Shown here: piece after piece, positions 6,001 to 36,625 of the stretch | How positions within the stretch are numbered: the first letter of the stretch is position 1 | How the letters are laid out: every line of letters starts with the position of its first letter | NCBI GenBank assembly: GCA_040954595.2 | Contig: CM082596.2 | Location: 9,940,461 to 10,004,460 of the forward strand | DNA length: 64,000 nt | Direction: 5' to 3' | Source: Balanoglossus misakiensis | Taxonomy: Eukaryota > Animalia > Hemichordata | Notes under the pieces: generated by a model | Told to the model about the DNA's origin: nothing | Database searches by the model: none | What the model saw: the letters and a program-made list of their open reading frames with translations, nothing else | Position numbers and translations under genes: made by a program

Positions 6001-9000
6001 CTAATAGTGCATCAGAGTAGATGGTGATGCAAGCTCTGCACTTTGACATAGGTATTTAATGCATATGCATGTGTATTTAATGTTGACTATAAATCCTCAG
6101 GTGAATACATGGCCATAAACACTATAATTTGACATTGCTAATGAAATGGTGACACTGAATCTGATTCTTTGCATCAGGGCATATTGTGAAGCATGCTTGA
6201 TGATGCATTAGGGTCAATAGTGATGGAAACACTGCACTATGACATGGGTATTTAATGCATACGCATTGATATTTACAGTTGACTCTAAATCCCGAGGTTT
6301 ATACATGGCTAAAAGCGCTGTAATTTAAAATTACTAATGCAAAGGTTACATTGAATATGGGTAAATGGTGAAGCAAGCTTGAAGATGCATCAGGGTAGCT
6401 GGTGTTTCAAGCCCTTCACATTGACATTGGAATATAATGCATATGGGGATTTAAAGTTGATTGTAAATCCCTAGGTTAATACATGGCCAAAAGCAATTTT
6501 ATTTGACATTGCTAATTGAACGATGACATTGAATCCGATTCTTTGCATCAGGGTAAATGGCGATGCAAGCTTGATGATGCATCACGGTAGATAGTGATGC
6601 AAACACTTTACTTTGACATGGGTATTAAATGCATATGGGGATTTCAATTTGATTACAAATCCCTGGGTTAATACGCGTCCAAAAGCACTGTAATTTGACA
6701 TTGCTAATGCGATGTTGACATTGAATGTAATTCTCCGCATTAGGGCAAATGGCAAAGCAAGCTTAATGATGCAATGGAGTAGACCGTGATGCAAGCTATG
6801 CATTTTGACATAGGTATTTAATGCATGTGCATGGGTATTAAATGTTGAATGTAAATTCTCAGGTTAATACATCTCCAAAAGCACTGTAATTTAAAATTGC
6901 TAATGTAAGGGTGACATTGAATCTGATTCTTTGCATTAGGGGAAATGGCGTAGCAAGCCTAATGATCCATCTGAGTAGATGGTGATGCAAGCTAAGCATT
7001 TTGACATAGGTACTAAATGTATATACATGGGTATTTAAAGTTGTCTGTAAATCCCCAGGTTAATACATGGCCATAAGCATTATAATTTGACATTGCTAAT
7101 GAAATGGTGACACTGAATCTGATTCTTTGCATCAGGGCATATTGTGAAGCATGCTTGATGATGTATTAGGGTCAATAGTGATGGAAACACTGCACTATGA
7201 CATGGGTATTTAATGCATACGCATTGATATTTACAGTTGACTCTAAATCCCGAGGTTAATACATGGCTAAAAGCGCTGTAATTTAAAATTACTAATGCAA
7301 AGGTTACATTGAATATGGGTAAATGGTGACGCAAGCTTGAAGATGCATCAGGGTAGCTGGTGTTTCAAGCCCTTCACATTGACATTGGAATATAATGCAT
7401 ATGGGGATTTAAAATTGATTGTAAATCCCTAGGTTAATACATGGCCAAAAGCACTGTAATTTAAAATTGCTAGTGCAATGGTGACATTGAATGTGATTCT
7501 TTGCATCAGGGCATATTGTGAAGCATGCTTGATGATGCATTAGGGTCAATAGTGATGGAAACACTGCACTATGACATGGGTATTTAATGCATACGCATTG
7601 ATATTTACAGTTGACTCTTAATCCCGAGGTTAATACATGGCTAAAAGCACTGTAATTTAAAATTACTAATGCAAAGGTTACATTGAATATGGGTAAATGG
7701 TGAAGCAAGCTTGAAGATGCATCAGGGTAGATGGTGTTTCAAGCCCTTCACATTGACATTGGAATATAATGCATATGGGGATTTAAAATTGATTGTAAAT
7801 CCCTAGGTTAATACGTGGCCAAAAGCAATTTTATTTGACATTGCTAATGCAACGATGACATTGAATCCGATTCTTTGTATCAGGGTAAATGGCGATGCAA
7901 GCTTGATGATGCATCACGGTAGATAGTGATGCAAACACTTCACTTTGACATGGGCATTAAATGCATATGGGGATTTCAAGTTGATTACAAATCCCTGGGT
8001 TAATACGCGTCCAAAAGCACTGTAATTTGACATTGCTAATGCGATGTTGACATTGAATGTAATTCTCCGCATTAGGGCAAATGGCAAAGCAAGCTTAATG
8101 ATGCAATGGAGTAGACGGTGATGCAAGCTATGCATTTTGACATAGGTATTTAATGCATGTGCATGGGTATTTAATGTTGAATGTAAATTCCCAGGTTAAT
8201 ACATCTCCAAAAGCACTGTAATTTAAAATTGCTAATGTAAGGGTGACATTGAATCTGATTCTTTGCATTATGGGAAATGGCGTAGCAAGCCTAATGATGC
8301 ATCTGAGTAGATGGTGATGCAAGCTAAGCATTTTGATATAGGTACTAAATGTATATACATGGGTATTTAAAGTTGTCTGTAAATCCCCAGGTTAATACTT
8401 GGCAAAAAGCAATTTTATTTGACATTGCTAATGAAATGGTGACACTGAATCTGATTCTTTGCATCAGGGTAAATGGCGATGCAAGCTTGATGATGCATCC
8501 CGGTAGATAGTGATGCAAACACTTCACTGTGACATGGGTATTAAATGCATATGGGGATTAAAAGTTGACTGAAAATCCCTGGGTTAATACAAGTCCAAAA
8601 GCACTGAAATTTGACATAGCTAATACAATGGTGACATTGAATGTGATTCTTTGCATTAGGGGAAATGGCGTAGCAAGCCTAATGATGCATCAGTGTAGAT
8701 GGTGATCCAAGCTATGCTTTTTGACATAGGTATTTAATGCATGTGCATGGGTATTTAATGTTGACTGTAAATCCCTGGGTTAATACAAATCCAAAAGCAC
8801 TGTAATTTGACATTGCTAATACAACGGTGTCATTTAATCTGATTCTTTGCATCAGGGCAAATTGCGAAGCAAGCTTAATGATGCATCGGAGTATATGGTG
8901 ATGCAAGCTATGCACTTTGACATACGTATTTAATGCATATGCATTGGTATTTAATGTTGACTGTAAATCCCCAGGTTAATACGTGGCCAAAAGCACTGTA

Positions 9001-12000
9001 ATTTGACATTGCTAATGCTACCGTGACACTAAATCTGATTCTTTGCATTAGAGTAAATTGTGAAGCAAGCTTGATGATGCATCAGGATAGATGGTGTTTT
9101 AAGCCCCTCACATTGACATTGGAATATAACGCATATGGGGATTTAAAGTTAATTGTAAATACCCAGGTTAATACATGGCCAAAAGCACTGTAATTTAAAA
9201 TTGCTAATGCAATGGTGACATTGAATGTGATTCTTTGCATTAGGGGAACTGGCGTAGCAATCCTAATAGTGCATCAGAGTAGATGGTGATGCAAGCTCTG
9301 CACTTTGACATAGGTATTTAATGCATATGCATGTGTATTTAATGTTGACTATAAATCCTCAGGTGAATACATGGCCATAAACACTATAATTTGACATTGC
9401 TAATGAAATGGTGACACTGAATCTGATTCTTTGCATCAGGGCATATTGTGAAGCATGCTTGATGATGCATTAGGGTCAATAGTGATGGAAACACTGCACT
9501 ATGACATGGGTATTTAATGCATACGCATTGATATTTACAGTTGACTCTAAATCCCGAGGTTTATACATGGCTAAAAGCGCTGTAATTTAAAATTACTAAT
9601 GCAAAGGTTACATTGAATATGGGTAAATGGTGAAGCAAGCTTGAAGATGCATCAGGGTAGCTGGTGTTTCAAGCCCTTCACATTGACATTGGAATATAAT
9701 GCATATGGGGATTTAAAATTGATTGTAAATCCCTAGGTTAATACATGGCCAAAAGCACTGTAATTTAAAATTGCTAATGCAATGGTGACATTGAATGTGA
9801 TTCTTTGCATCAGGGCATATTGTGAAGCATGCGTGATGATGCATTAGGGTCAATAGTGATGGAAACACTGCACTATGACATGGGTATTTAATGCATACGC
9901 ATTGATATTTACAGTTGACTCTTAATCCCGAGGTTAATACATGGCTAAAAGCACTGTAATTTAAAATTACTAATGCAAAGGTTACATTGAATATGGGTAA
10001 ATGGTGAAGCAAGCTTGAAGATGCATCAGGGTAGATGGTGTTTCAAGCCCTTCACATTGACATTGGAATATAATGCATATGGGGATTTAAAATTGATTGT
10101 AAATCCCTAGGTTAATACGTGGCCAAAAGCAATTTTATTTGACATTGCTAATGCAACGATGACATTGAATCCGATTCTTTGTATCAGGGTAAATGGCGAT
10201 GCAAGCTTGATGATGCATCACGGTAGATAGTGATGCAAACACTTCACTTTGACATGGGCATTAAATGCATATGGGGATTTCAAGTTGTTTACAAATCCCT
10301 GGGTTAATATGCATCCAAAAGTACTGTAATTTGACATTGCTAATGCGATGTTAACATTGAATGTAATTCTCCGCATTAGGGCAAATGGCAAAGCAAGCTT
10401 AATGATGCAATGGAGTAGACGGTGATGCAAGCTATGCATTTTGACATAGGTATTTAATGCATGTGCATGGGTATTTAATGTTGAATGTAAATTCCCAGGT
10501 TAATACATCTCCAAAAGCACTGTAATTTAAAATTGCTAATGTAAGGGTGACATTGAATCTGATTCTTTGCATTATGGGAAATGGCCTAACAAGCCTAATG
10601 ATCCATCTGAGTAGATGGTGATGCAAGCTAAGCATTTTGACATAGGTACTAAATGTATATACATGGGTATTTAAAGTTGTCTGTAAATCCCCAGGTTAAT
10701 ACATGGCCATAAGCTCTATAATTTGACATTGCTAATGAAATGGTGACACTGAATCCGATTCTTTGCATCAGGGCATATTGTGAAGCATGCTTGATGATGT
10801 ATTAGTGTCAACAGTGATGGAAACACTGCACTATGACATGGGTATTTAATGCATATGCATTGATATTTACAGTTGACTCTAAATCCCGAGGTTAATACAT
10901 GGCTAAAAGCGCTGTAATTTAAAATTACTAATGCAAAGGTTACATTAAATATGGGTAAATGGTGAAGCAAGCTTGAAGATGCATCAGGGTAGATGGTGTT
11001 TCAAGCCCTTCACATTGACTTGGAATATAATGCATATGGGGATTTAAAATTGATTGTAAATCCCTAGGTTAATACGTGGCCAAAAGCAATTTTATTTGAC
11101 ATTGCTAATGCAACGATGACATTGAATCCGATTCTTTGCATCAGGGTAAATGGCGATGCAAGCTTGATGATGCCTCATGGTAGATAGTGATGCAAACACT
11201 TCACTTTGACATGGGCATTAAATGCATATGGGGATTTCAAGTTGATTACAAATCCCTGGATTAATACGCGTCCAAAAGCACTGTAATTTGACATTGCTAA
11301 TGCGATGTTGACATTGAATGTAATTCTCCGCATTAGGGCAAATGGCAAAGCAAGCTTAATGATGCAATGGAGTAGACGGTGATGCAAGCTATGCATTTTG
11401 ACATAGGTATTTAATGCATGTGCTTGGGTATTTAATGTTGAATGTAAATTCCCAGGTTAATACATCTCCAAAAGCACTGTAATTTAAAATTGCTAATGTA
11501 AGGGTGACATTGAATCTGATTCTTTGCATTATGGGAAATGGCATAGCAAGCCTAATGATCCATCTGAGTAGATGGTGATGCAAGCTAAGCATTTTGATAT
11601 AGGTACTAAATGTATATACATGGGTATTTAATGTTGAATGTAAATTCCCAGGTTAATACATCTCCAAAAGCACTGTAATTTAAAATTGCTAATGTAAGGG
11701 TGACATTGAATCTGATTCTTTGCATTATGGGAAATGGCATAGCAAGCCTAATGATCCATCTGAGTAGATGGTGATGCAAGCTAAGCATTTTGATATAGGT
11801 ACTAAATGTATATACATGGGTATTTAAAGTTGTCTGTAAATCCCCAGGTTAATTCTTGGCAAAAAGCAATTTTATTTTACATTGCTAATGAAATGGTGAC
11901 ACTGAATCTGATTCTTTGCATCAGGGTAAATGGCGATGCAAGCTTGATGATGCATCCCGGTAGATAGTGATGCAAACACTTCACTTTGACATGGGTATTA

Positions 12001-12440
12001 AATGCATATGGGGATTAAAAGTTGACTGAAAATCCCTGGGTTAATACAAGTCCAAAAGCACTGAAATTTGACATAGCTAATACAATGGTGACATTGAATG
12101 TGATTCTTTGCATTAGGGGAAATGGCGTAGCAAGCCTAATGATGCATCAGTGTAGATGGTGATCCAAGCTCTGCGCTTTGGCATACGTATTTAATGCATG
12201 TGCATGGGTATTTAATGTTGAATGTAAATTCCCAGGTTAATATATGCATGGGTATTTAATGTTGACTGTAAATCCCTAGGTTAATACATGGCCATAAGTA
12301 CTGTAAGGGGTAGATGGTGATGCAAGCTCTGCACTTTGACATGGGGATTAAATGCATGCTGAGGGGGATTTTAAGTTGTCTGTAAATCCCCAGGTTGATA
12401 TGTGGCCAAAAGCACTGTAATTTGACATTGCTAATGATGG
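1..12440. repeat. Satellite DNA, ~196-bp monomer (variants ~192 and ~178 bp) in a 17-monomer 3262-bp higher-order repeat
   Basis: The GGTTAATAC anchor recurs at 143, 339, 535, 731, 908, 1104... Near-identical spurious ORFs recur at a 3262-bp period (885/4147/7409; 1390/4652/7914; 2188/5450/8712). The array runs off the left edge of the window. Confidence 0.97.
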
Positions 12441-16436: not shown

Positions 16437-16965
16437 CATGGGGATTAAATGCACATGCGTGTGTATTTAAAGTTAACTGTAAATCCCCAGGTTAATACGT
16501 GGCCAAAAGCACTGTAATTTGGCATTTCTAATGATGGTGAGATGTTGTTTGCTCCCCAGGGAGTTGAATGGAATATTTAGGTCCAACATCCTAGGTCAAA
16601 TGACCATGGGACAACTTAAAGCACGTTGAGATTTAATGTGCTACATAAGTTATAAATATTATAAAAATATTATTACATAAACAACACTCTTCCTTAGCAA
16701 AGGAAGTGGTCAGGTGAAATATATTCGCAGAGCTGACCAATTCTTTAAGGAAAATTAAAGTTGGGTAATTTGGATGTATTCATACGAGTGTTGGTCAATG
16801 ATAGGAAAGTCCTTTGTTCATTTTCAAAATGAAAACCAAAAATGCGAACAAAACACACTGAATTACGTATGGGATATTGATGTTGCCTAATTTGCGTGAC
16901 TCTACATTTACTTAAACTCTCACAGGGAGACAAATGTCACAGCAAACGGAAAAATGATTATGCTA
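16437..16965 (+). repeat. Duplicate of 12340-12860 (satellite part-monomer + SINE tail + flank)
   Basis: Direct colinear similarity to 12340-12860. Confidence 0.85.
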
Positions 16966-16967
16966 AG

Positions 16968-18935
16968 CAATACGCCAACCTTTAAAATATTACTTTAGAA
17001 AGTTTGTATTCATACTTTCTTCAAGTTGTCATAACGCTACCCCGAAATGTGTTTAAGTATTGCCTTTGTATTAATGGGCTAGATTCATGGCGTTATATGT
17101 CATAAATTAAAAAGCCAACCCTTATTGATTTTGATAATATTTATGTCGGAGAATCCACAATGAAAAATATGTATTTCAATTTCATAACTCAAAATGATTT
17201 TCAAATCCATGACCTTATTTTCAACTCCAGTGATCGTACATCCTGAACCTCGTGCCAGTAAATGATTGGCCATTACAGGGTTAATGGGCACTCTCCCGTT
17301 CTCTTCCTCCGCAGTTTCATTCATGTTCTTGTTTGACGGAAATGGGTGTGACCAGACGCTTGAATGTTTTCATGTGGGTGTCGTTGTTCATCGGGATCGG
17401 TCTCCTGGTGTGTCTGTACAGGTACGCAAGGAGAAACTGCCCACAAGAAGCTGCGAGTGAAACTATTTAAGGTAGTATGTGCCTCGCGGTCCGAGATTCA
17501 GACAAATGATAGTCCTCAAAACTTTTTCAAGTCTTTGATTTACTAAAGTGTATGGTGAGTCTCTTTGAAAACAACAAAAACATTACTCACCATATTGTTA
17601 TTTTTTTGAAAGTTTAAAATGAAGTTGACAATGTACCAAACAGATTCTATTTATTTCTTCATGACCATGTTCACCCCAAGGTCATATGGACCTGCAAGTA
17701 TATGCCAGAGCCAGAGTCGACATTACCGAAGCCAGAGTTCAAAGCTTGCAGGTCACCCCTTGCCAGCTCATGTCTAGCTAAACTGCCATGGATGCCAAGA
17801 GATATAGGACTACAGTAACCTGTAGATGGTTTCAGTATGTTTGAAGAAAGTGGTGGCGCACTTTTGGCTACATTTGAAATGGCTATGGTACCAGTGGTTG
17901 AATTTGCAAAGGTGACCTTTGACCTGGTATCATTAAAGATATTAAAGAACGATTGAACATTCCTTGTTGTCGTAAAATGACATCTGTAATAACTTATATT
18001 TTATCTGTTCATCTTGAAGTACTATATATTTAAACGCCAATTTTCCATTGCCAATCAATTTTTACAAATAAATTGTAATATGCATGTTGATTTTACAAAA
18101 ACTCCTTACTTCAAAGTGAATTCTGTTACACATCACGTAAATATTTTCCCCACGAATTCTTCAGTTGCTGACTCGGAAATTTCATATATTGGGCAGAAAT
18201 TGGATACATTACCGAGCCATTAAAATTACAGTTTTCTATTTTAATTGATCTTCCATAACTTCAAGTACTTTGATTTGACATAAATTAAAAACATCATGGT
18301 GAATAAATAAAAAATCTTTGATTATCTAATTGTGCATGTTTACATGGTTTTATTTTAGTATGCTGGGTACTTAATGTCTAATTGCTCGCTGATTTTATAC
18401 TGTTCAAGATGACAATCTAATTTTAGTTTTCAGCTGATAATGGAAATTACTGATTAAAAAAATTGAATTTTGTCATGAATAAACTTGTTGTTCATGGCAG
18501 TTGCTGTATTTTGTTTCATGTGTATTCAATTTTTGCAAGAATACCATTGAGCACAGTTTGATTTGATTAAACACGTTTATCGGAAAATTTTGTCATTTGA
18601 AATATCTGTTTTTGCGCCCTCTACCATTTGACCAAATGATTCTCTTATTTTGGTGGCCTTTGTCTGTGTATATGAGAATACTATAGTACTCTCGCATCGA
18701 TGATAGTAGAAGTTGAAAACGTCTCTTGCCACGTGGCCTAGAAGAAAGGTGATCTTTAGAGTAAAATAAAACAAACTATCCAGATAGGAAGCTAGAAAAG
18801 AAGTTGAATCGTTGAAATTTTATTTATTTTTATATTGTTAATATCGTTGGTGATGTTGACTGGCCGACAATCTTTGTCACACCAGTATTTGCAGGTAGAT
18901 TAAAACATTGCCTATTCCAGCAATAATCACAACAG
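16968..18935 (+). repeat. ~2-kb dispersed duplication, copy 1
   Basis: CAATACGCCAACCTTTAAAATATTAC...CCAGCAATAATCACAACAG is colinear with 33715-36625. Confidence 0.95.
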
Positions 18936-20784: not shown

Positions 20785-22557
20785 TTGGAAGGGACTGCTT
20801 TAAAAGATTATGTTAGAGAGGAACAAATTAGACAGAGGGATCTTAGGGCTACTGAGAGAGAGGAGCAGAGAGAAGATAATAGGCGGCGCGAGGAACATGA
20901 GAGAGAGATACTGAAAATGCAAATTCACTTACAAGAATTAAAATTGAAAGGGGAAAATACAGAACAGCAGGTTACTGAAAATAATTTGGCCAAAGCGCGT
21001 GCTCCGAGACTACAGGGTTTACGTGAGGATGTTGATGATATGGATGCGTACCTTCAACGTTTTCAGCGCTACGCCACTGCTCAGAAGTGGGAAAAAGATG
21101 ACTGGGGGTGAATCTCAGTGCATATTGTTACAAGGTAAGGATGTATCCACATACAACCAAATGCCTGCAGCGTCTGCAAATAATTATGATGAATTGAAAC
21201 CAGAGTTATTGAGGGCTTACCAGTTAAGTGAGGAGAGTTTTCATGACAAGTTCCGTTCGTGTATGCCACATTATGATGAAAGTGCTCAAAAGTTTATGGA
21301 CCGTATTGGTGACTATTTGGGCAGATGGGTAGAACTGGCTGGTACTCCAAAGACGTACAATGGGCTTACAGATCTGTTACTTCGAGAGCAGTTTATTGGA
21401 GTATGTTCCAGAGACATGGCAATGTTCATTAGAGAGCGACGGCCAGAGAATGTCCAAGAGATGGTATCTACTGCCTCAAAATACTTAGATGCCCGAGGGT
21501 GGTGGAAACTGCCAAGTAATGCCAAGAATAATCCAAGGAGCCAGCCGACAGCAAATACCAAGCCTGCTGTATATCCAAATCAAGTAAATAAGTTTAATAA
21601 CAAAACCAATGGTTCCCATGTTTTTAAAGGTACGTGCTTCGTATGTGGTAAAGGTGGTCATATGGCCAAAGATTGTAGAAGTAAGCCAAAGATGCATAAG
21701 ACGGCGGTATTGTTAACTGAAGAAGATAGAAACTATCCACCTAAACAAGAATGTACACATTGGGGCAACCGTCAACAGCCCAGGGGACTAGACACTGGTT
21801 ATGCATGTATGGTGGTAGCAATGGAAATAGATAAAACAGATGCAACACTGAATAAGGAGTTCGTGTTACCATGTGGTCATAAGCTCCCAGTGATGAGTGC
21901 TGCTTGTAGTGCCCATGGAGTGAAGAAGATGCCGGTAATGAAGGGATTGGTCGATGGTAAGCTGGTTAGCGTTTTGCGTGATAGTGGGTGTAGTAGCGTG
22001 GTAGTTCGAAGAAGTCTGGTGTCAAGTAATCAGCTGACTGGTGAGTACAGGACGTGTGTTCTGATAGATGGGACTATTAGAAGAGTACCTGTAGCCTCTA
22101 TAAAAGTTGATACCCCTTACTTTGTTGGTGATGTTACTGCACTGTGCATGATGAACCCTGTGTATGATTTAATACTGGGCAACATTGATGGTGTATCTGA
22201 CCCTTCGAATCCTGATACTACATGGCAGGAACCATTGCCGACATGTAGACTGTGTACAACTGTTGGACAGGTACCAGGTTTAGCAAATGCTGTGGAGACC
22301 AGAGCCCAGAAGATAGCCAACCAAAAACCAATCAGAGAGCTTAAAGTACCTAAAGCTGTTGGTGAAGTGGTGATGCCAGGGAAGCTTCAACAAGCTCAAG
22401 AAGAAGACTCCACTCTTGACAAACTACGTGAGAAGGCAATTTTGGGTGACGAGAAAGTGACTAGGAATGGAGGTAGGTTGAAGTTCATCATGAAAGATGG
22501 GATCCTGTACAGAGAGTTCAATTCGCCAATGGTCCAATTTGGTGAAAAGCTGTTACA
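20785..22557 (+). pseudogene. gag: gag-protease part of the Gypsy polyprotein (frameshift near 21110)
   Basis: Coiled-coil N-terminus and DMDAYLQRFQRYA in ORF 20785; LLLREQF, CFVCGKGGHMAKDC knuckle and LRDSGCS protease in ORF 20999. Confidence 0.9.
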
Positions 22558-22600
22558 CACTGCGGGAAATACTAGAGCTATGTTGGGCAGTATTCCGCGA
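22558..22600 (+). repeat. Left bipartite terminal inverted repeat
   Basis: CACTGC-N20-TGGGCAGTATTCCG. Confidence 0.8.
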
Positions 22601-22641
22601 AGCGCGAGCTCCCATGTTCACCATAGCAACGCATTGCCAAG

Positions 22642-23292
22642 ATGGCGGCGCCCGTGTTGATCGATGCCGAGAAAGTTATAAAACGCAAATTGCGAGAGGC
22701 AAAATCTGTGCTTAAACGTAAAAAATGCGTGTCGGACAATCTGTATATACACCCACTCTTTGATGAACTTGAGGATGTGACAACAAGGGCCATATTTCGA
22801 AACGACAAGCTGTCAAAGGACAAGATTCGTTGGCGTGACGTCGCCGTATTTCCCATGTTTCAGCGTGATATGACCTACTGGCAGAAGACCTTCTACGCTC
22901 GGCTGTCAACATCCCCGTCGTTAAGGTCACCATGGCAAAGCAGCTTTACACAACAAATGCCGAGGGAAGTATTTGATGTTTTTCATCAGTTTGCTACTCG
23001 GACCGGTTTTGGTATCGACGAGAAGACCTCCAGGGCTATCATAACCTTGACCTTCACAAGTTCCTCGAAGCTATTGTATGTGATACGGAAAGGTTATTGC
23101 TACGAGGGCGCTATCGGTCAGCATACAGAGAATATCCTAGAGAAGAAAGTCCGTGGAAAGAGGGTAGCTGTTATATGCACACCTGAGAAGCCCTGTGTTG
23201 TGAAATATTTTATCAACAGGGAGACTGTTGCTGTTAGATTCAGCTTTGGTGCCTGGAACAAACATGGAATTCCATTACATCCAGAGAACTGA
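22642..23292 (+). CDS. 216-aa basic protein of unknown function, transposon accessory gene
   Basis: Uninterrupted ORF with ATG in CAAGATGGCGGCG 84 bp inside the left end, AATAAA at ~23421 and a globular-looking composition. No domain recognised. Confidence 0.7.
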   Translation: MAAPVLIDAEKVIKRKLREAKSVLKRKKCVSDNLYIHPLFDELEDVTTRAIFRNDKLSKDKIRWRDVAVFPMFQRDMTYWQKTFYARLSTSPSLRSPWQSSFTQQMPREVFDVFHQFATRTGFGIDEKTSRAIITLTFTSSSKLLYVIRKGYCYEGAIGQHTENILEKKVRGKRVAVICTPEKPCVVKYFINRETVAVRFSFGAWNKHGIPLHPEN

Positions 23293-24144
23293 ACCCTATT
23301 GATTTTTCACACTGATTCAACCCATCTGACGAACATTTTTTTCCTGATCTGTGGCACATGTTGTTCAGTGTAGATGTATCAGTCTGTCAAGACAGTCCTC
23401 TCACAATTGACATATATTCAAATAAAAAAAGGAAAATTAGAAGACTCAAAAATTCATCACTTGTCTTTATTTATCTACATTCAATACAAATGAACAGATA
23501 ACGTTTACAAAATTTCCTAAACTGTAAAATTCTTTTTTTCCATCATTATTGTAACATAGATTTTTCATTAGTTTCAGAAAAAAATGTATGTTACCTACAA
23601 TCAACATTGATAAGTCAATCAAAACTGCTCATCTAACAGTTAACCAGGATTTCTGGTCTAAATTTAATTAATATTTACAATTAATTCCATGACAAAATTT
23701 ATAAATATCAAGAATTTGATGAGACTTAATTCTTTATTTTTTCACAAATTCATTAAAATTTCGTGCAGGTGCAGAATAAACAACTCCTCAAGAAAAATGT
23801 AAAACTTTTCTATCAAGCTTATGTATGTCATACATTTTAATTTTGCAAAGCACTGCAATCACTATACGATTAAGGGTTTATTCACAATACTTAATAGTGG
23901 TAAGATAAGTTTCAATTTCCCTGTCCCCATACATGCACACATATACAAAATCCCATAAGAAACATATCATCTCCAGTTCAAAAAGTGTGAATTCATGTGA
24001 TTTGTGATCTCCATTTTTATTAAATGCAGCTCTCAACTACAGATGAGTCTTTATAATTCTGTAATGTAATTAATACCATAGTTATCCTTTAATTCTAAAG
24101 TAGCACACAGTGACACAATCCACTGTTTCAAATTCAATCATTGT

Positions 24145-26385
24145 TCACAGCATAAGTTTCTTGAGTTTATTTGATATTTTACCAGTGACAGCTGCTTTTT
24201 TTATGTCATCCATAATTGGGTCAACACATATTTCACAGGCAGTCATTGTTTCATTTTTCAAATTGCCACACATACAGTAGCCTGCATTCTCATAATATCG
24301 ACTGGGAATGTATTTTTCTTTTTCTTTAAGCTCAAATTGACCTACATTTGCCCTTCTATAGTTGTCAGCTTTTGGACTTTTGTTCCTCAGCCAAAAAAGC
24401 ATCACATATTCGTGTCGAAATATGAGGGCCCACCTATTTTGAGGTGTAGAATTTTCACTGAATTCTAGCAGGCGTAGATGCTTTGCCTCTCTGCCTTCCA
24501 TTGTGTTTAGGCCTAATCCCAGACTGAATTGCTTATAGATACTAGTGGTGTGTTTTGGGACTACATAACCAATGTGCCACACAGTATTATTGACATTCAG
24601 AAACAGGGAATGTAGATTAAAGTACCACCGACACTTATGCCTAAGTACAAGCAAATCTCCCTCATTTATGTTGAATCGTGAGAATAACAAAGTGATATCT
24701 CTAAGCAAGATACCAGTATATGTGTAGAGAGCTAATTGAGCCCGACGCTTTGGACTGTCTGTATCGCTTCTCAATGCTAATACCAATCCCATGAAATGCC
24801 AAGCAAGTTTGCGAGACTCCTCACCAGTGAAGCGATAAACCACATTAATGTTGGCATTTGACTTGACACTATTTTCATTGAAGTATTTTACAATCTTATT
24901 ATACAACTTTCCAGCTTTTACTTGATATTTTAGGGCAGACAGGAATTTGTACAGATATGACTCGTTAGGTAGATTCTCAATTTTAACTCCATTTTCACGA
25001 CCCTTTTCCGAAGTGTGGGCAACTGCGTCAATCAGTAATCGTTGGAAGTAGTATTGCCATGCATTGTTCTTTAAATGCAATGGCTCAGCCTTGGCACAAT
25101 CAATAAATCTACCCAACGGTGGTACAAATTCCTGTCTTGACCTCAGACTGGCTATAAATTGTGTGATTTTGGGTCGCACTGTTTTGGGCTTTCCAGTTTT
25201 AATTTTCTTAGTTGACTTCAACTTTTCAACAGCTTCTGCATCTTTAATTCTTTTCTGATATTTCCATTCATCCCACTTCTGACCTGGGCCAATTTCTGCT
25301 CCAATACAATCAATATCATTTTTGGAAACGTTAGCAAATGAGCTGAAATACTTTGCTGCATTGCTTAGTTCTCCAGACACACTGGCCAATCCCTTCTGAT
25401 CAAAGGGTAAAAGTGACACCTGAAAAGTTACATCAAGACTGCCAACTTTATATTTACGTTTCTCAATACACTCAAGGTCTTTTGACAATGCAATTGCAAA
25501 TTCAATCATTATGGGGTCATCCTCTTTTATGTTTGCCCCTAATAGGAGAATATTGTGGTCTGGGCTAGCAACACGGTGGGTCACATTCAAGAAACTAACT
25601 AGCCATGCAGTGGCCTGTCCATGTTTGCCAAACGGAGCCCCGTCAGCACCTATACTGATTTGAAATGAGCCCTCCTGTTTACCGAACCAGTTAAGAATAT
25701 CAGGCTGTGTTTCCCCCATATTTAAATATAAACTGGCAATCTTAATAAGCAACTCCTCAGGGTTTCTTTTTAAGCCGACTTGTTTGCCTTCAGATGATAT
25801 AATTGGCTCAAGATTTCCAATGTCAAGGTTACTTACATACTGTACAACTTTTGTGTATGGGAGCAGTCTTGGTATTCTACAGCCAGAATGAATTTCTAAT
25901 GCTTTCCTAGGATGTTTCAAGTTGGAGAACATCTGAAGTTCACTCTGCCTCAGACAGTTATATTTTCGTTTGGATAGTACTCCGCCCTCATACATAGTTC
26001 TGACACTCCTCACCAAATTGTTCTCACTTTTCTCAAATTTACTGATGTATTTATCAAATACTGATGGCATTACTTTTTTACTGATTTGGGGAGAGGTTCT
26101 GAAGTATGTTTTCATTTGGTCAGGAGTGGCAGAATTAACAAGAGTATACCACAAACCATCAAGTGCTGCTTTTGGTGGATGTAGTACATTCGGTTTATTT
26201 ATACCTTTGGCTGGGCTTACATCTGTAGTTGCTACATGAATATTTATGGCTGCTGATAAGGTTTCACACCTACGTTCATACTGTTGACGTCGCGACAGCT
26301 TCAAAGATTCACTATTATCTGCACATACTTCAGTGTTCTTGTGGACCCATTTAGAGCGTTTCACATTAACATCATCAACAGGAAT
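24145..26385 (-). CDS. DDE transposase, RAG1-core/Transib/Chapaev-like; main (last) exon
   Basis: Motifs in RAG1 order: ISIGADGAPF (D), LLPFDQKGL (D), EPLHLKNN, RFTGEESRKL, GLGLNTMEGREAKH (E), then a C-terminal CMC-x9-CEIC. Splice acceptor TCTTTCAG at 26386, phase 0. Confidence 0.85.
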   Translation of the reverse strand: MPVDDVNVKRSKWVHKNTEVCADNSESLKLSRRQQYERRCETLSAAINIHVATTDVSPAKGINKPNVLHPPKAALDGLWYTLVNSATPDQMKTYFRTSPQISKKVMPSVFDKYISKFEKSENNLVRSVRTMYEGGVLSKRKYNCLRQSELQMFSNLKHPRKALEIHSGCRIPRLLPYTKVVQYVSNLDIGNLEPIISSEGKQVGLKRNPEELLIKIASLYLNMGETQPDILNWFGKQEGSFQISIGADGAPFGKHGQATAWLVSFLNVTHRVASPDHNILLLGANIKEDDPIMIEFAIALSKDLECIEKRKYKVGSLDVTFQVSLLPFDQKGLASVSGELSNAAKYFSSFANVSKNDIDCIGAEIGPGQKWDEWKYQKRIKDAEAVEKLKSTKKIKTGKPKTVRPKITQFIASLRSRQEFVPPLGRFIDCAKAEPLHLKNNAWQYYFQRLLIDAVAHTSEKGRENGVKIENLPNESYLYKFLSALKYQVKAGKLYNKIVKYFNENSVKSNANINVVYRFTGEESRKLAWHFMGLVLALRSDTDSPKRRAQLALYTYTGILLRDITLLFSRFNINEGDLLVLRHKCRWYFNLHSLFLNVNNTVWHIGYVVPKHTTSIYKQFSLGLGLNTMEGREAKHLRLLEFSENSTPQNRWALIFRHEYVMLFWLRNKSPKADNYRRANVGQFELKEKEKYIPSRYYENAGYCMCGNLKNETMTACEICVDPIMDDIKKAAVTGKISNKLKKLML

Positions 26386-26738
26386 CTGAAAGATTAAGTG
26401 TGTGATAAATATATACTAATTAGAATATAATCATTATATATAAAATAAAATCTTCTTACAAGTTAATCATTAATTTAAATGTCCTTGATAAGAAATACAC
26501 ACGTGTAGCCTGTATTTTTCTGACAACTTCTGCAATAAAAATCCTAAAAAATATATATAGTTTGTTGGAAAACCTAGATGTTTTGCATCAAAGCTGAACC
26601 CATTTTGTTATCATTGTTTACACAGGATCATGTGACATGAAGTTCAAAAAGCGAATTTGGGCTAAAATTTGAAGAGGATTTATACAAATCTGAGATTTTT
26701 AAAATTATGACTAAGTCTATTTATCTGATCTAGCTTAC

Positions 26739-27182
26739 CTTTCTCTTATTATTCTTTGTAGCTAAGATCTCACAAATCTTACTGTTCTTCTTCTCTAGTC
26801 TAGCTAGCTGGGTTGAGGATCTTTTTACTAGTCTCCTAGCTGCACTCAACTTATTCAACTTATCCTGAATTATGCTTTCTTCCTCATCTCTCTTTCTCTT
26901 TCTCTGTCTACACCACTCTCCTAAGTTAAACCTGTGTTTAGTCTGTCCTCTCTTTGTTCTAACTACCAATAGGTTGTTGGCCACGCTCCCAGACAAAGAT
27001 CTAGTCTTCAATTTCTCCTGATATAGTTGTTGCAAACACTTCTCTTCAGCTACCTGTCTCGCTATCTTTTGGTCCTTTGTCCACTGGCCTATGTTGAAGT
27101 AACTTTTCCCTTTTCTATTCGGCATAACAATAGACAAACTTTTAAGAAGTGCGCTACTCCTGTTGAATAGTTTGCCCCACAT
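26739..27182 (-). CDS. Upstream coding exon of the transposase (148 aa, K/R-rich, helical)
   Basis: ATG at 27182 in GCCATG; donor AAG|GTAAGC at 26738 joins in phase 0 to IPVDDVNVKR, giving ~894 aa in total. A further acceptor (CCCTTTTCAG, 27199) and donor (ATG|GTAAGG, 27334) suggest a 5'UTR intron. Confidence 0.7.
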
Positions 27183-27987
27183 GGCTCTAAATCTATACCT
27201 GAAAAGGGTGAACAAGAGAAATATCTTTACAATAATTATCTATCCGAGGGAAGCAAAAACAAAACACCTGCTCATTATACTTCCTCCAGAAATTGAGGTC
27301 AAAGGTGACATAGAAAGAATGTGGGTAACCTTACCATAACAATCTCGCCCGTTCATTTTTTTCTTATTTCGTTTTCACCCTCGAATTTCCAGCGAATTAT
27401 ATCAAGAATATATTTTAGCACAAACTATTGGTTTCTGATTTTTCAGTTACGGTCTTATTTTCTGTCAATTCTATGAACAATATCACCATGTCGCTGAAAA
27501 TTCGAAGCGCCGCCATTACAATCAATGTAACCCGTGCTGCTGCCAAGGAACACACAGGGTCGTATATTTTCGCTTGGTATGATTTCGTCATATTGCTTGT
27601 AGCAGCATTTTAAACATGGAATCCTATGTTTACGTATAAAAGACTAAATTCGTATGGTTTTCAAATTGAAAAAAACAATTCTGTGAAGCTGAATCGTTGT
27701 AATTTTTAGTGTTTGTTTATGGTTGCTTAGGACGGCTTCTGCTATAGCAACGGCCAGGGACTGTCAGCGGGTGATCAAAATGTTCAAGTTATTTGGCTGA
27801 TACACATAAATAACACAGCAGAATCGCAACTTTATTTCATATTGTCTCTGACATCTTGCTAATTTTACTAAACAAAACTTGGAATAAAGCAATATTACTC
27901 ACCGAATTATGCTGTGCATCGACAGCTGTGTTCGATCGCGAACGCCATTACTGTGTCTAATTAAATATTCATGAGCTTCATAGGCTG

Positions 27988-28031
27988 CCACGGAAATACT
28001 GCCCATAGGTGGCGTCGTTCAAGCTGTAGTG
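27988..28031 (-). repeat. Right bipartite terminal inverted repeat
   Basis: The reverse complement reads CACTAC-N20-TGGGCAGTATTTCCG. Confidence 0.8.
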
Positions 28032-28034
28032 ACA

Positions 28035-29995
28035 GGTGGTGGTTCCCAGAGTGTATCGTAACCAGGTGATGAGACTAGCCCATGAATCAGTGCTGGGTGG
28101 TCACCACGGAACTCACAAGACCACAGACAAGATCCTCAGCAACTTCGTTTGGCCTGGGCTAACATCAGATGTTTCCCGTTACTGTCAGTCCTGTGATTCA
28201 TGTCAACGGACACAACCAAAGGGACGGGTGACCAAGGTACCACTTGGAAGTATGCCACTAATAGATATCCCTTTCCTACGTATTGCAGTAGACCTGGTTG
28301 GCCCTATTCATCCATGCACTGAACGCAAGAATAGGTACATACTTACTGTTGTTGATTATGCAACACGCTATCCGGAGGCTGTTGCATTGACTAACATTGA
28401 TACCAAGACTGTTGCAGAGGCGCTCCTGGACATCTACTCAAGAGTGGGGTGTCCACGTGAAATTCTGACAGATCAAGGAACTCAATTTACATCAGATGTG
28501 ATGCGTGAGGTCAGCCGGCTTTTGTCTATAAAGCAGAAGACTACCACCCCATACCACCCAGCATTCAATGGTCTAGTGGAACGGTTCAATGGTACATTGA
28601 AACTCATGCTCAGGAAGATGTGTGAGGAACGTCCAACATATTGCGATCGTTATCTGAATGCTTTACTATTTGCCTACAGAGAAACGCCTCAATCGAGCAC
28701 AGGATTCTCTCCGTTTGAGTTACTTTATGGGAGGAGTGTGCGTGGTCCAATGGCTATCTTGAAAGAACTATGGACTGGAGAGATCAGTGAACCAGAAACC
28801 AAAACGACTTATCAATACATCCTTGATCTTCAAAAGAAATTAAAGAAGGCATGCGATTTAGCAAGACAAGAACTGAAGATATCACAAGGCAAATACAAGT
28901 CCTACTACAATAGAAAGGCCAAATGGAGGAAGTTCAACAAAGGTGACGAGGTGTTATTGCTACTACCTACTGACCATAATAAACTACTTATGCACTGGAA
29001 GGGTCCTTTTCCAGTGGTGGAGAAAGCGAGCAATATGGATTACAAGATTGACTTTGGTCATAGGGTGAAAACATTCCATGCCAACCTGTTGAAGAGGTAC
29101 TATCGAAGAACTGATCAGCTAGATGAAGTATCAGCTGGACTTCTTGAGATTGTGTGTGTATCTGTGATAGATGAGCAGAGTTATGAATCTTCAGAAGTAC
29201 AAGAGAACACAGGGGTTAAAGTAAACGATGACTTACTGCGGGTTCCTGCATTCAAGCAGAAAGAATTTGCTGCAGATGTGAATGTATGTGACAACTTGTC
29301 AGACATACAGGAGCAAGTGGTGAGGAGGTTGCTGATCAATTACAAAGATATGTTAACTGATATTCGTGGTAACACCAACCTGGGTTTCCATGACATCAAG
29401 TTGATGGATCCAACACCAGTATGCAGTAGGCCATACCCCATCCCTCATGCACTCCGTGAAGCAGTGAAAGATGAAGTCAAAACGATGATTAAGATGGGAG
29501 TAGCTGAACCTTCAGAGAGTCCATATGCTGTTCCACTGGTAATGGTGAAGAAATCTGATGGGTCCAATCGTTGTTGTGTTGACATGAGAAAGCTCAATCG
29601 CATAACAGTGTTTGATGCAGAGCCTACACCAGACCTGAGTGATCTCAGCAAAGAATATTGGCAAGTCCCGTTGACTGATAATTCTAAACAATTGACGGCA
29701 TTTATCACGCATGATGGGCTATACCAATTTATCAAAATGCCTTTCGGACTTGTAAATAGTGCTGCGACTTTTAGCAGAATTATGAGAAGATTGTTAAGAG
29801 ATATGAAGAACGTAGACAACTATATCGATCACATACTGATCCACACTGCATCATGGGAAGAACATATCAAGACAATTACAGATTTGATGAGCAGACTACG
29901 AAAGGCAAAGTTAACAGCGAGACCAACTAAGTGTTATGTGGGTTATGAGCAGATCGATTTCCTGGGTCATGTGGTTGGTCATGGTGAACTATTCC
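28035..29995 (+). pseudogene. pol: Integrase + defective, truncated reverse transcriptase of the Gypsy element
   Basis: AHES..GHHG..CDSC zinc finger, AVDLVGP, ILTDQGTQF, GLVERFNGTLK and WKGPF, then RT motifs PYAVPLVMVKK, MPFGL, YIDH (for YIDD) and FLGHVVG. There is an internal deletion before DLSKEYWQ. The ORF tail to 30201 is unrelated sequence. Confidence 0.92.
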
Positions 29996-30094
29996 TGTTT
30001 CAAAATGACCTACATTACAGGTCCTATGCACACGTATTACATGTTCTGATTGGTTTATCCACTTCTCTAAGGTCCACTTGCGGCTCGCTGATTG

Positions 30095-30355
30095 GAGGGA
30101 CCTTATGTGTTAGGTCTTATTACTATGTATTATTCACCAGACCTTGTAGGTTAGGTCTTATTACAATGCATTATTCACTTTACAGCTCCCTGATTGGTTA
30201 ATGTGTAGGTCTGGTCCTCCAGTGTTCACTGCCTCATTATGCAGGACCTTGTAGGTTAGGTCTTATTAATATGTATTTATTCACCATACAGCTCCCTGAA
30301 TGGTTAACGTGTCAGTCTGGTCCCCCCCCCCCAGTGTTCACTGCCTCATTGTGAA
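30095..30355. repeat. Short local tandem duplication (~106-bp unit)
   Basis: ACCTTGTAGGTTAGGTCTTATTA at ~30141 and ~30247; CCAGTGTTCACTGCCTCATT occurs twice. Confidence 0.6.
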
Positions 30356-33600: not shown

Positions 33601-33714
33601 AGCGTTAACATAACTTTATCAGAATAAGTTAACGCCATAACTTTGACAGAATAAGAGTTGCCTCAAACGGCTCTAACCGAATTTCCATTAATAGCAGAAC
33701 AAACAAGCTGTAAT

Positions 33715-36625
33715 CAATACGCCAACCTTTAAAATATTACTTTAGAAAGTTTGTATTCATACTTTCTTCAAGTTGTCATAACGCTAACCCGAAATGTGTT
33801 TTAGTATTGCCTTTGTATTAATGGGCTAGATTCATGGCGTTATATGTCATAAATTAAAAAGACAACCCTTATTGTTTTTGATAATATTTATGTCGGAGAA
33901 TCCACAATGAAAAATATGTATTTTCAATTTCATAACTCAAAATAATTTCCAAATCCATGACCTTATTTTCAACTCCAGTGATCGTACATCCTGAACCTTG
34001 TTCCAGTAAATGATTGGTCATTACAGGGTTAATGGGCACTCTCCCGTTCTCTTCCTCCGCAGTTTCATTCATGTTCTTGTTTGACGGAAATGGGTGTGAC
34101 CAGACGCTTGAATGTTTTCATGTGGGTTGAGTTGTTCATCGGGAACGGCCTCCTGGTGTGTCTGTACAGGTACGCAAGGAGAAACTGCCCACAAGAAGCT
34201 GCGAGTGAAACTATTTAAGGTAGTATGTGCCTCGCGGTCCGAGATTCAGACAAATGATAGTCCTCAAAACTTTTTCAAGTAATTGATTTACTAAAGTGTG
34301 TGGTGAGTCTCTTTGAAAACAACAACAATATTACTCATCATATTGTAATTTTTTGAAACTATAAAATGAAGTTGACAATGCACCAAACAGATTCTATTTA
34401 TTTCTTCATGACCATGTTCACCCCAAGGTCATATGGACCTGCAAGTATATGCCAGAGCCAGAGACGACATTACCGAAGCCAGAGTTTAAAGCTTACAGGT
34501 CACCCCTTGCCAGCTCATGACTAGCTAAACTGCCATGGATGCCAAGAGATATATGACTACGGTAACCTGTAGATGGTTTCAGTATGTTTGAAGAAAGTGG
34601 TGGCGCACTTTTGGCTACATTTGAAATGGCTATGGTACCAGTGGTTGAATTTGCAAAGGTGACCTTTGACCTGGCATCTTTAAAGATATTAAAGAACGAT
34701 TTACCATTCCTTGTTGTCGTAAAATGACATCTGTAATAACTTATATTTTATCTGTTCATCTTGAAGTACTATATATTTAAACGCCAATTTTCCATTGCCA
34801 ATCAAGTTTTTACAAATAAATTGTAATATGCATGTTGATTTTACAAAAACTCCTTACTTCCAAGTGAATTCTGTTACACATCACGTAACTATTTTCCCCA
34901 CGAATTCTTCAGTTGCTAACTCGGAAATTTCATATATTGGGCAGAAATTGGATACCGTATATTCTCACAAATAAGCGCCACCCATGATTAGGCGCCAGTG
35001 ATACCTGACTTTGCTACTTTTTACTTAAAATTAAGCGCCAGGAATTTTTTTTGAGGTGTGTGGACGTACGTGAATCATGACAAGTGCTACCGAGGTAACA
35101 CCTGTTTAGGGGTCTCGTCAAAAACAACGGGGGGCTTGCTGTGTGAATAATAATTGACCTGAGCAGACAATGCATGCTTTGGGCTGATGTGCTATTTATT
35201 TACAAGATGAAATCGGGCACGTGTCAACCTCCTAATTTATGTAAATTATCACACTGCAAAAGACACAGGTGCCGGGCGTCTAGACACTCGTCTTTTTCCT
35301 GTCGATCGATCGGCAGCCGCTTACGTTACCGGCACTACCACCCAAGTTTGACCATATGGCCAGGGCTTTGAAATAATAGGACTAGTTTCAAGTTGTGAAT
35401 ATGTTTGCGGTATTAATTTTCTCGTGAATATTCACGCAACGTGAGTACATGTATTCACGCAACCTTGCCTGACCTTACATGTATGAGAGCATGATGACAA
35501 AGACGCACTTGGACTAAACCACTATACGTCAGTAGATTTTGTTGATGGTTCAGCCAGCATACTGTAATGCTGCTCGTAGTATTCACTTCGTTGACAACTT
35601 TTTATTTCTGGAATATTTATTAGATAATACATTGAACTGACTGTATTTGAATAGAAAATGTTAAAACTTTACATATGAATTTGAAACAGCCATTCATTCA
35701 CTACGGACACTCCCTTATGAGAACACTGATTGGAACGTCCCAAATCATTTGCATATGAATCAACAGGGTACAGTATACCGGGCTATCCATGAATAAGCGC
35801 CACCGGTTCTTGAAAAGACTCATTTCTGCCTTTGTTTAGGCGCCACCAAAATTTGAAATGGTTAAAAAGTGGCGCTTATTTGTGAGAATATACGGTACAT
35901 TACCCAGCCATTAAAATTACAGTTTTCTATTTTAATTGATCGTCCATAACTTCAAGTACTTTGACTTGACATACATTAAAAACATCATGGTGAATAAATA
36001 AAAATTATTTGATTATCTAATTGTGCATGTTTACATGGTTTTATTTTAGTATGCTGGGTACTTAATGTCTAATGGCTCGCTGATTTTATACTGTTCAAGA
36101 TGACAATCTAATTTTAGTTTTCAGCTGATAATTGAAATCAATGATTCAAAAAAATTGAATTTTGACATGAATAAACTTCTTGTTCATGGCAGTTGCTGTG
36201 TTTTGTTTCATTTGTATTCAATTTTTGCAAGCATACCATTGAGCACAGTTTGATTTGATTAAACACGTTTATCGGAAAATTTTGTCATTTGAAATATCTG
36301 TTTTTGCGCCCTCTACCATTTGACCAAATGATTCTCTTATTTTGGTGGCCTTTGTCTGTGTATATGAGAATACTATAGTACTCTCGCATCGATCATAGTA
36401 GAAGTTGAAAACGTCTCTTGCCACGTGGCCTGGAAGAAAGGCGATCTTTAGAGTAAAAAAAACAAACTATCCAGATAGGAAGCTAGAAAAGAAGTTGAAT
36501 CGTTGAAATTTTATTTATTTTATATTGTTAATATCGTTCGTGATGTTGACTGGCCGACAATCTTTGTCACACGAGTCTTTTCAGGCAGATTAAAACATTG
36601 CCTATTCCAGCAATAATCACAACAG
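33715..36625 (+). repeat. ~2-kb dispersed duplication, copy 2 (with a 941-bp MITE insertion)
   Basis: Colinear with 16968-18935 apart from the insertion. Confidence 0.95.
34955..35895. mobile_element. Non-autonomous Tc1/mariner-pogo element, perfect 27-bp TIRs, TA TSD
   Basis: TA|CCGTATATTCTCACAAATAAGCGCCAC...GTGGCGCTTATTTGTGAGAATATACGG|TA. The empty site GGATACATT is present in the paralog at ~18202. Confidence 0.92.

Follow-up and report, generated by a model that had tools for sequence, protein, structure and literature searches.

What is the small gene that accompanies the transposase of a DNA transposon in Balanoglossus misakiensis, and what does it do for the element that carries it? 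The transposon lies in a 64-kb stretch of contig CM082596.2 (here called the window), and inside it a 216-amino-acid (aa) partner gene on the plus strand and a spliced DDE transposase on the minus strand are arranged tail to tail. The original prediction, made from the sequence of the window, had described an orphan partner in the position that RAG2 would occupy, a protein that was neither RAG2 nor TnpA and that might act as a transposase cofactor, an end-binding protein or an anti-silencing factor; it had named co-occurrence with the transposase and dN/dS among its checks. The element is delimited by the following features.

22558..28031 (no strand): cut-and-paste DNA transposon, 5,474 bp, with CAC...GTG ends and a 3-bp duplication
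22555..22557 (+): left target-site duplication, 3 bp, identical to bases 28032-28034
28032..28034 (+): right target-site duplication, 3 bp, identical to bases 22555-22557
22558..22597 (+): left terminal inverted repeat, bipartite: CACT at the very end and an 11-bp block at positions 27-37
27992..28031 (-): right terminal inverted repeat, bipartite like the left one

The element is present as a single copy within the 64-kb window. Its termini read CACTG on the left and, as the reverse complement, CACTA on the right, and the two ends are poorly alike save for the first 4 bases and the block at positions 27-37, which is identical in both. Each end is GC-rich and has an ATGGCG motif; arrays of short subterminal repeats were not seen at either end in the window. 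The insertion site is the pol reading frame of a Gypsy-type long terminal repeat (LTR) retrotransposon, the upstream frame of which matches SCAN, zinc-knuckle and protease entries in Pfam. In this interrupted retroelement (window 21029-22557 and 28032-30201), gag carries the SCAN domain and an integrase-like part lies 5' of the reverse-transcriptase-like part, presumably the order of Gmr1-like elements. The whole nest is bracketed by direct repeats of ~2 kb that are 92 to 99% identical (window 16964-18935 and 33711-36625), with an additional stretch of roughly 940 bp in the right copy; they are possibly a duplicated unit or a further mobile element. Satellites surround the nest (window 1-12246 and 37600-64000), including a 196-bp repeat in 64 copies and a 78-bp repeat with switches of orientation, and a further array with a 239-bp unit occupies 39977-41365, a heterochromatin-like setting.

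At the left end of the element, the partner gene is laid out as follows.

22642..23292 (+): partner gene, single frame, 216 aa; predicted helical hairpin (residues ~1-68) and predicted basic alpha+beta domain (residues ~70-213)
22638..22650 (+): TISU/YY1-like start element over the partner ATG, CAAGATGGCGGCG; the same motif is found in relatives
23421..23426 (+): candidate poly(A) signal of the partner gene, AATAAA, 129 bp past the stop codon

The description of this frame as an intact, basic 216-aa open reading frame (ORF) held up, with a pI of 9.9 and no ATG-initiated ORF of at least 216 aa in any of 2,000 base shuffles of the 1.6-kb region. So did its predicted start 84 bp inside the left end at a YY1-type initiator, the end being CACTG at 22558 directly after the 3-bp duplication, and its AATAAA about 130 bp after the stop. 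AAGATGGC occurs once in the 64-kb window. The context AAGAUGG defines TISU, an element that acts in mammalian transcripts with very short 5' untranslated regions and is at the same time a YY1 site, as described in PMC2518114; the partner start matches this element and would presumably be used in the same manner. Two overlapping frames were rejected as genes, being shadow or read-through frames: an antisense 92-aa ORF (22578-22856) and the Gypsy frame extending to 22660.

The transposase occupies the opposite strand.

24145..26385 (-): main transposase exon, 746 codons
25644, 25401 and 24489 (-): D, D and E of the transposase, i.e., D158, D239 and E543 counted from the Met at 26115
26386..26738 (-): predicted transposase intron, GT-AG, phase 0
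26739..27125 (-): predicted first coding exon, 129 codons, basic, suggested by weak similarity to homologs' N termini and to relatives' upstream exons
24016..24021 (-): candidate poly(A) signal of the transposase, AATAAA
27943..27948 (-): ATGGCG in mirror position, 83 bp in from the right end

The mirror motif is likely a promoter element of the transposase transcript, with a short upstream frame. Among 7,995 scored candidates, 267 transposase homologs were found at an E value of ≤0.001. The best is a Ptychodera flava protein (73% identity); the other 119 among the matches listed are 34 to 45% identical, and those of them assigned to an organism are cnidarian proteins described as "uncharacterized" or "hypothetical." D158, D239, H347 and E543 are invariant in all 89 aligned rows, suggesting that these residues have a catalytic role, and the protein also carries an LH motif and a C-terminal CxC-x10-CxxC; we take the order of motifs to resemble that of the RAG1/Transib core. 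Between D239 and E543, no column of the 89 rows is at least 70% Cys, H347 and H522 alone are conserved as His, and a second His 4 to 5 residues away never exceeds 51%, so the family seems to do without the C(2)C and H(3-4)H zinc motifs of CMCT transposases. A Pfam scan of 26 transposases (25 homologs plus that of the window) returned no credible match, and searches of Protein Data Bank (PDB) sequences with the single sequence and with the 89-row profile returned none.

The conservation of the partner was assessed in 81 related loci, comprising the best 80 of 242 metagenome loci found in a transposase-profile scan plus one locus from a metagenome-assembled genome (MAG); all relatives with DNA context are metagenome contigs of apparently cnidarian DNA, from coral metagenomes among others, and one MAG contig. 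With the window ORF alone as a tblastn query, which is not circular, a convergent match downstream of the transposase was found in 33 of the 81 loci; among the 35 loci with at least 1.5 kb of downstream sequence, 30 had one. Thirty shuffled queries gave no matches. A partner profile built from these matches, the counts of which are therefore partly circular, places the gene convergent and downstream of the transposase in 33/35 loci with ≥1.5 kb, in 23/24 with ≥2 kb and in 36/81 overall. The two loci lacking it do so within 1.8 kb (L030) and 4.6 kb (L079), and an element end was seen in neither; elsewhere the gap between transposase and partner reaches 3,976 bp. The 36 partner-bearing loci form 18 families besides that of the window (19 in all), across which position and orientation are fixed. 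Full-length homologs are 200 to 260 aa long, in one frame, and about 15 to 27% identical to the window protein. The gene is therefore not the orphan it was taken for, since homologs occupy the same position in related elements, and the co-occurrence with the transposase that had been named as a check is borne out.

The architecture of the element is shared as well. A partner-side CAC end was located in 25 of 31 loci examined, and in the 22 loci where the partner ATG could be placed properly, it lies 70 to 116 bp from the CAC terminus. Of the 16 listed starts of relatives, 15 read ATGGCG and have A at -3; the coordinate of the 16th is misplaced, and the motif is present there too. Both ends were found in 13 relatives, of which 6 have a 3-bp duplication, and none extends to 4 or 5 bp; the remaining 7 may be assembly chimeras of multicopy elements. 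L065, L071 and L027 are examples of intact relatives with both ends.

The partner family had escaped direct searches. A single-sequence search with the ORF against 5.8 billion proteins yielded no homolog among 87 candidates, and the family surfaced through DNA context; the profile then retrieved another 21 proteins from 3,404 candidates, none of them with a name beyond "hypothetical." All 21 carry a precomputed label from a newer Pfam release, PF26709, which covers part of the partner family; no mention of PF26709 was found in the literature searched. In searches of viral contigs, neither the transposase nor the partner ORF was found.

Several observations were made along the way in the relatives. 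In 7 of the 19 families, pieces of the element's own partner coding sequence (24 to 339 bp, 70 to 96% identical) recur in inverted orientation without exception, either upstream of the transposase or immediately behind it. The pieces lie at the following locus coordinates.

L007 6474-6892: inverted partner piece
L009 569-746: inverted partner piece
L011 3970-4076 (and its family): inverted partner piece
L016 3705-3938 (and its family): inverted partner piece
L021 806-903 and 1727-1813 (and L019): inverted partner pieces
L040 3019-3061: inverted partner piece
L081 3735-4130: inverted partner piece

Of the five pieces measured, three lie at a roughly mirrored distance to the opposite end. An inverted 38-bp piece of the transposase occurs in one family, and the window's element has no inverted pieces. 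Such pieces could arise by template switching in gap repair or could serve hairpin- or small-RNA-mediated self-regulation. In two loci (L013 668-1512 and L015 2395-3239), a second CAC end lies ~845 bp outside the transposase-side end, resembles the partner-side end and encloses a partner fragment, possibly reflecting a composite or an adjacent deleted copy. Other transposase-like frames sit beside related elements at L077 5314-6912 (-) and L071 9018-9449 (-), which by their motifs we take to be Kolobok/Mutator-like and Harbinger-like, respectively. The MAG locus, L081 (G001 contig C35), has an intact-looking transposase and partner on a contig of 86 kb that belongs to an Anaerolineae MAG; it adjoins a step in GC content from 0.56 to 0.40, and the contig looks chimeric. 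It is likely animal DNA that was misjoined or misbinned or, less probably, the product of transfer to a bacterium.

Selection on the partner could be measured in a clade with unsaturated dS (L001, L002, L004, L025 and L042; 10 pairs). The dN/dS ratios range from 0.22 to 0.53, with bootstrap intervals below 1 in 8 of the 10 pairs and values of 0.22 to 0.35 in 7 of those 8. Both pairs whose interval includes 1 involve L001, which carries an internal deletion, and five distant, near-saturated pairs (0.6 to 0.85) are uninformative. Because dS is saturated between the window and all relatives, selection on the window lineage was judged by codon-position bias; identity of the window ORF to all relatives is 0.41, 0.49 and 0.32 at first, second and third positions, which is the pattern of a constrained coding sequence. 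Judged by these sequence comparisons, the partner family is under purifying selection where it is measurable, as the second check had asked, with ratios of ~0.2 to 0.35 and identity decreasing from second to first to third position.

The partner has also diverged together with its transposase. Trees for 21 partner-transposase pairs recover the same main clades, the transposase tree in this comparison being a quick version. In FastTree trees, 12 of 18 splits are common to both proteins (maximum of 3 in 2,000 shuffles), and the patristic distances correlate with a rho of 0.72, a value reached in 0 of 5,000 permutations; the partner evolves ~1.6 times faster than the transposase. Linkage alone yields such congruence, which is therefore evidence of long coinheritance, not of physical contact. 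The pattern contrasts with that of the TET/JBP cargo genes, which according to PMC12730594 group with others from the host genus and pass from one transposon lineage to another.

The local copy, in turn, seems to be a passively drifting insertion and not a domesticated gene, on small numbers. Contigs of one sample cross both element junctions unbroken and at the depth of the flanks, which suggests a single near-identical copy in that sample. Relative to the window, its partner has 3 substitutions, all of which change an amino acid, and its transposase has 10 (2 of them silent) plus two 1-bp indels. The sample carries Arg at partner residue 104, as does the majority of the family (25/32).

With a 34-row alignment, AlphaFold2 gave a partner model with a pLDDT of 85 and a pTM of 0.68; an alignment-free model (pLDDT, 33) was unusable. 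The model consists of two helices (residues 2-27 and 30-87), followed by a strand-helix-strand-strand-helix arrangement and four further strands, giving a predicted C-terminal domain of ~140 aa with ~7 strands. The four beta-strand-like segments read from the sequence coincide with predicted strands E133-138, E173-178, E185-190 and E195-205. The C-terminal part is net positive in all 34 aligned rows. Conservation is confined to Arg, aromatic, Pro and Gly columns and a single Asn; acidic residues, His and Cys are nowhere invariant.

Searches for known relatives of this fold gave no confident match to a DNA-binding domain. Foldseek returned nothing at an E value of ≤0.001 in the PDB and viral libraries, and the best superpositions of the C-terminal domain reach Z scores of 4 to 5, including residues 93-168 of RnlA and AcrID1-like proteins, with TBP-like and KA1 domains lower. 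The values for candidates of a TBP-like or helix-grip fold, to which RnlA 93-168 and the AcrID1-like proteins were assigned, are a Z of 4.5, a root mean square deviation (rmsd) of 4.0 and 73 aligned residues for 6y2q; a Z of 4.3, an rmsd of 4.3 and 80 to 82 aligned residues for 6exp and 2h36; and a Z of 3.5 for 4jhy. Such values are within the range of common arrangements. A wide structural search was dominated by matches to the N-terminal helical hairpin (top Z of 8.4, generic); the hairpin thus left the C-terminal domain undertested, and the absence of a match is no proof of a new fold. The ORF and its alignments gave nothing credible against PHROGs, NCBIfam, PDB sequences and a Pfam release that lacked PF26709, and a polyphosphate kinase identity was rejected, since the matches were limited to one or two members. 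Similarity of the partner to the transposase family was not detected (hhalign probability of 0.1%, with a transposase alignment that omits the first exon). In an Atlas feature search, the best clusters contained Argonaute N/L1/PAZ families at 0.93, below the marks for reliability (recognition of 1431 versus 2300; shared features of 151 versus 170); a second family member gave no usable match in that search, and none of 19 partner members has an Argonaute-family match in Pfam. A prediction of the complex of partner and transposase scored 0.00 in a run made without alignments and with an uncertain partner fold, and it speaks neither for nor against contact.

We then compared the gene with the second genes of known transposons, to which it may be likened by analogy: those of RAGL, En/Spm, Harbinger and Kol0 Kolobok elements. 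The features that mark RAG2 and RAGL were taken from PMC7204232. As in RAGL/ProtoRAG elements, two convergent genes lie between CAC-starting ends, the hosts are marine invertebrates, and RAGL ends are likewise described as bipartite (PMC9435367); the original prediction of a partner gene in a RAG2-equivalent position is thus right as geometry. The predicted lack of kelch repeats and of a PHD finger also proved correct: kelch matches in Pfam are absent from the 19 members, the model has long helices and ~7 strands, and none of the 4 Cys of the window protein is conserved, with no conserved Cys column in 34 rows. Without a kelch beta-propeller or a PHD finger, the partner is not RAG2. A further difference from RAGL/Transib is the length of the duplication, 5 bp there as against 3 bp for the window's element and for 6 of the 13 two-ended relatives; searches of Pfam and of PDB sequences gave no RAG1 match to the transposase, which appears to lack the ZnC2 and ZnH2 ligands.

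The CMC/CMCT clade, including EnSpm and Chapaev3, is defined by CAC...GTG termini and a 3-bp duplication (PMC12730594 and PMC4079192). The element shares these termini, the duplication, the DDE triad and the LH motif with EnSpm/CACTA and Chapaev3, but neither C(2)C nor H(3-4)H is conserved in the 89 aligned transposases, and therefore we do not file it as a member of that clade; the 26 transposases scanned also lack a credible Pfam match. Unlike in EnSpm/CACTA elements, its second gene is convergent and is not a helix-turn-helix (HTH) TnpA; and while Chapaev3 is described as restricted to TWA targets (PMC4079192), only 1 of 7 duplications observed here is TWA. TnpA of plant En/Spm is described as a tandem tri-helical HTH protein derived from the transposase by splicing or partition, and TnpA-like proteins as apparently restricted to flowering plants (bioRxiv 10.64898/2026.08.24.746577). 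Like TnpA, the partner is an accessory noncatalytic protein of a CAC-ended element with a 3-bp duplication; it differs in its predicted alpha+beta structure, its location on the opposite strand and its lack of similarity to its transposase. With no tandem HTH in the model and no profile similarity to the transposase, it is not TnpA, so that both exclusions made in the original prediction stand on the features tested. KolX of Kol0 Kolobok, also a small second gene coinherited with a DDE transposase, is reported to have 7 conserved Cys and a zinc ballast fold (PMC9587614). The partner family conserves none of its Cys and comes from another type of element, and an identity with KolX was rejected. 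Harbinger elements have a Myb/SANT protein as their small second gene; the partner has no Myb match and was rejected as such a protein. In our literature search the family was undescribed; it may stand in Repbase, in Yuan and Wessler 2011 or among the 962 Spm protein models of the TnpA preprint, and prior cataloguing of the lineage, as a Repbase or Pfam entry, is quite possible.

The partner is therefore a real gene, conserved in position and sequence and coinherited with its transposase, as the second gene of a two-gene family of cut-and-paste transposons. We give about an even chance to the reading that it encodes a DNA-binding cofactor of its own transposase. Its product would be noncatalytic, would bind DNA and would assist the cognate transposase; that it compensates for the missing zinc site is speculation. 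As a pattern in sequences, the strict codivergence favors a cognate-specific cofactor or end binder, yet it is also expected from simple linkage in one element and is compatible with a cognate-specific regulator. Plant TnpA and VANC, an anti-silencing factor, are models for such a regulator, and it is possible, though on the whole unlikely, that the partner is a sequence-specific trans-activator or anti-silencing factor that acts on its own subterminal promoters outside the cutting complex. A basic, noncatalytic-looking domain and the GC-rich, ATGGCG-bearing ends would suit this role, the codivergence suits it equally well, and in CACTA elements TnpA has this regulatory role (bioRxiv 10.64898/2026.08.24.746577). 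Against it, the TnpA domain is a tandem tri-helical HTH, apparently confined to flowering plants, whereas the partner is modeled as a hairpin plus an alpha+beta sheet; the repeat arrays sought at the window's ends were not seen, and the hhalign comparison argues against a common origin with the transposase family.

We consider it quite unlikely that the partner is an RNA-binding protein that opposes or modulates RNA silencing or regulates the transposase transcript. The Argonaute-containing Atlas clusters, the weak fold neighbors (RnlA residues 93-168 and the KA1/VCR domain of METTL16) and the inverted partner pieces in 7/19 families, which could form hairpin RNA, would fit such a function. 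However, the Atlas signal falls under its own reliability marks and has no counterpart in the second member or in Pfam, the inverted pieces stem from differing regions of the gene and could simply be errors of repair, and a general suppressor of silencing would presumably be exchanged among elements instead of codiverging with one transposase. Least probable by far is a captured host gene fragment or passenger with no role in transposition; the searches made gave no support for capture from a host. The nonsynonymous drift of the local copy is what a passenger would display, and a remote host origin of the gene may apply, but position and orientation are fixed in 19 families whose partners are about 20 to 27% identical to that of the window, the gene is under purifying selection, its tree matches that of the transposase, and a functional name is attached to 0 of the 21 profile matches. 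The version of the passenger reading that assigns the gene no role is largely refuted.

Returning to the two-gene transposon with a putative cofactor, we propose, tentatively and with less than even confidence, that the element represents an undescribed lineage related to RAG1, Transib and CACTA in which the transposase lost its zinc motifs and depends on a second subunit of uncharacterized fold. A standing question about RAG1-RAG2 is how a transposase made of one protein became dependent on a second subunit. If the proposal is true, a two-subunit recombinase resembling RAG1-RAG2 would have arisen independently among cnidarians and hemichordate-like hosts, in elements that have bipartite ends and a 3-bp stagger. 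The family is an apparently independent and compact case, with two genes in about 4 to 7 kb, and its transposase belongs to a family of at least 267 proteins that Pfam did not recognize in the 26 scanned. The PF26709-labeled homologs, an unnamed protein family, now have a biological context, and the intact-looking relatives with both ends and target duplications permit a cell assay of transposition with and without the partner.
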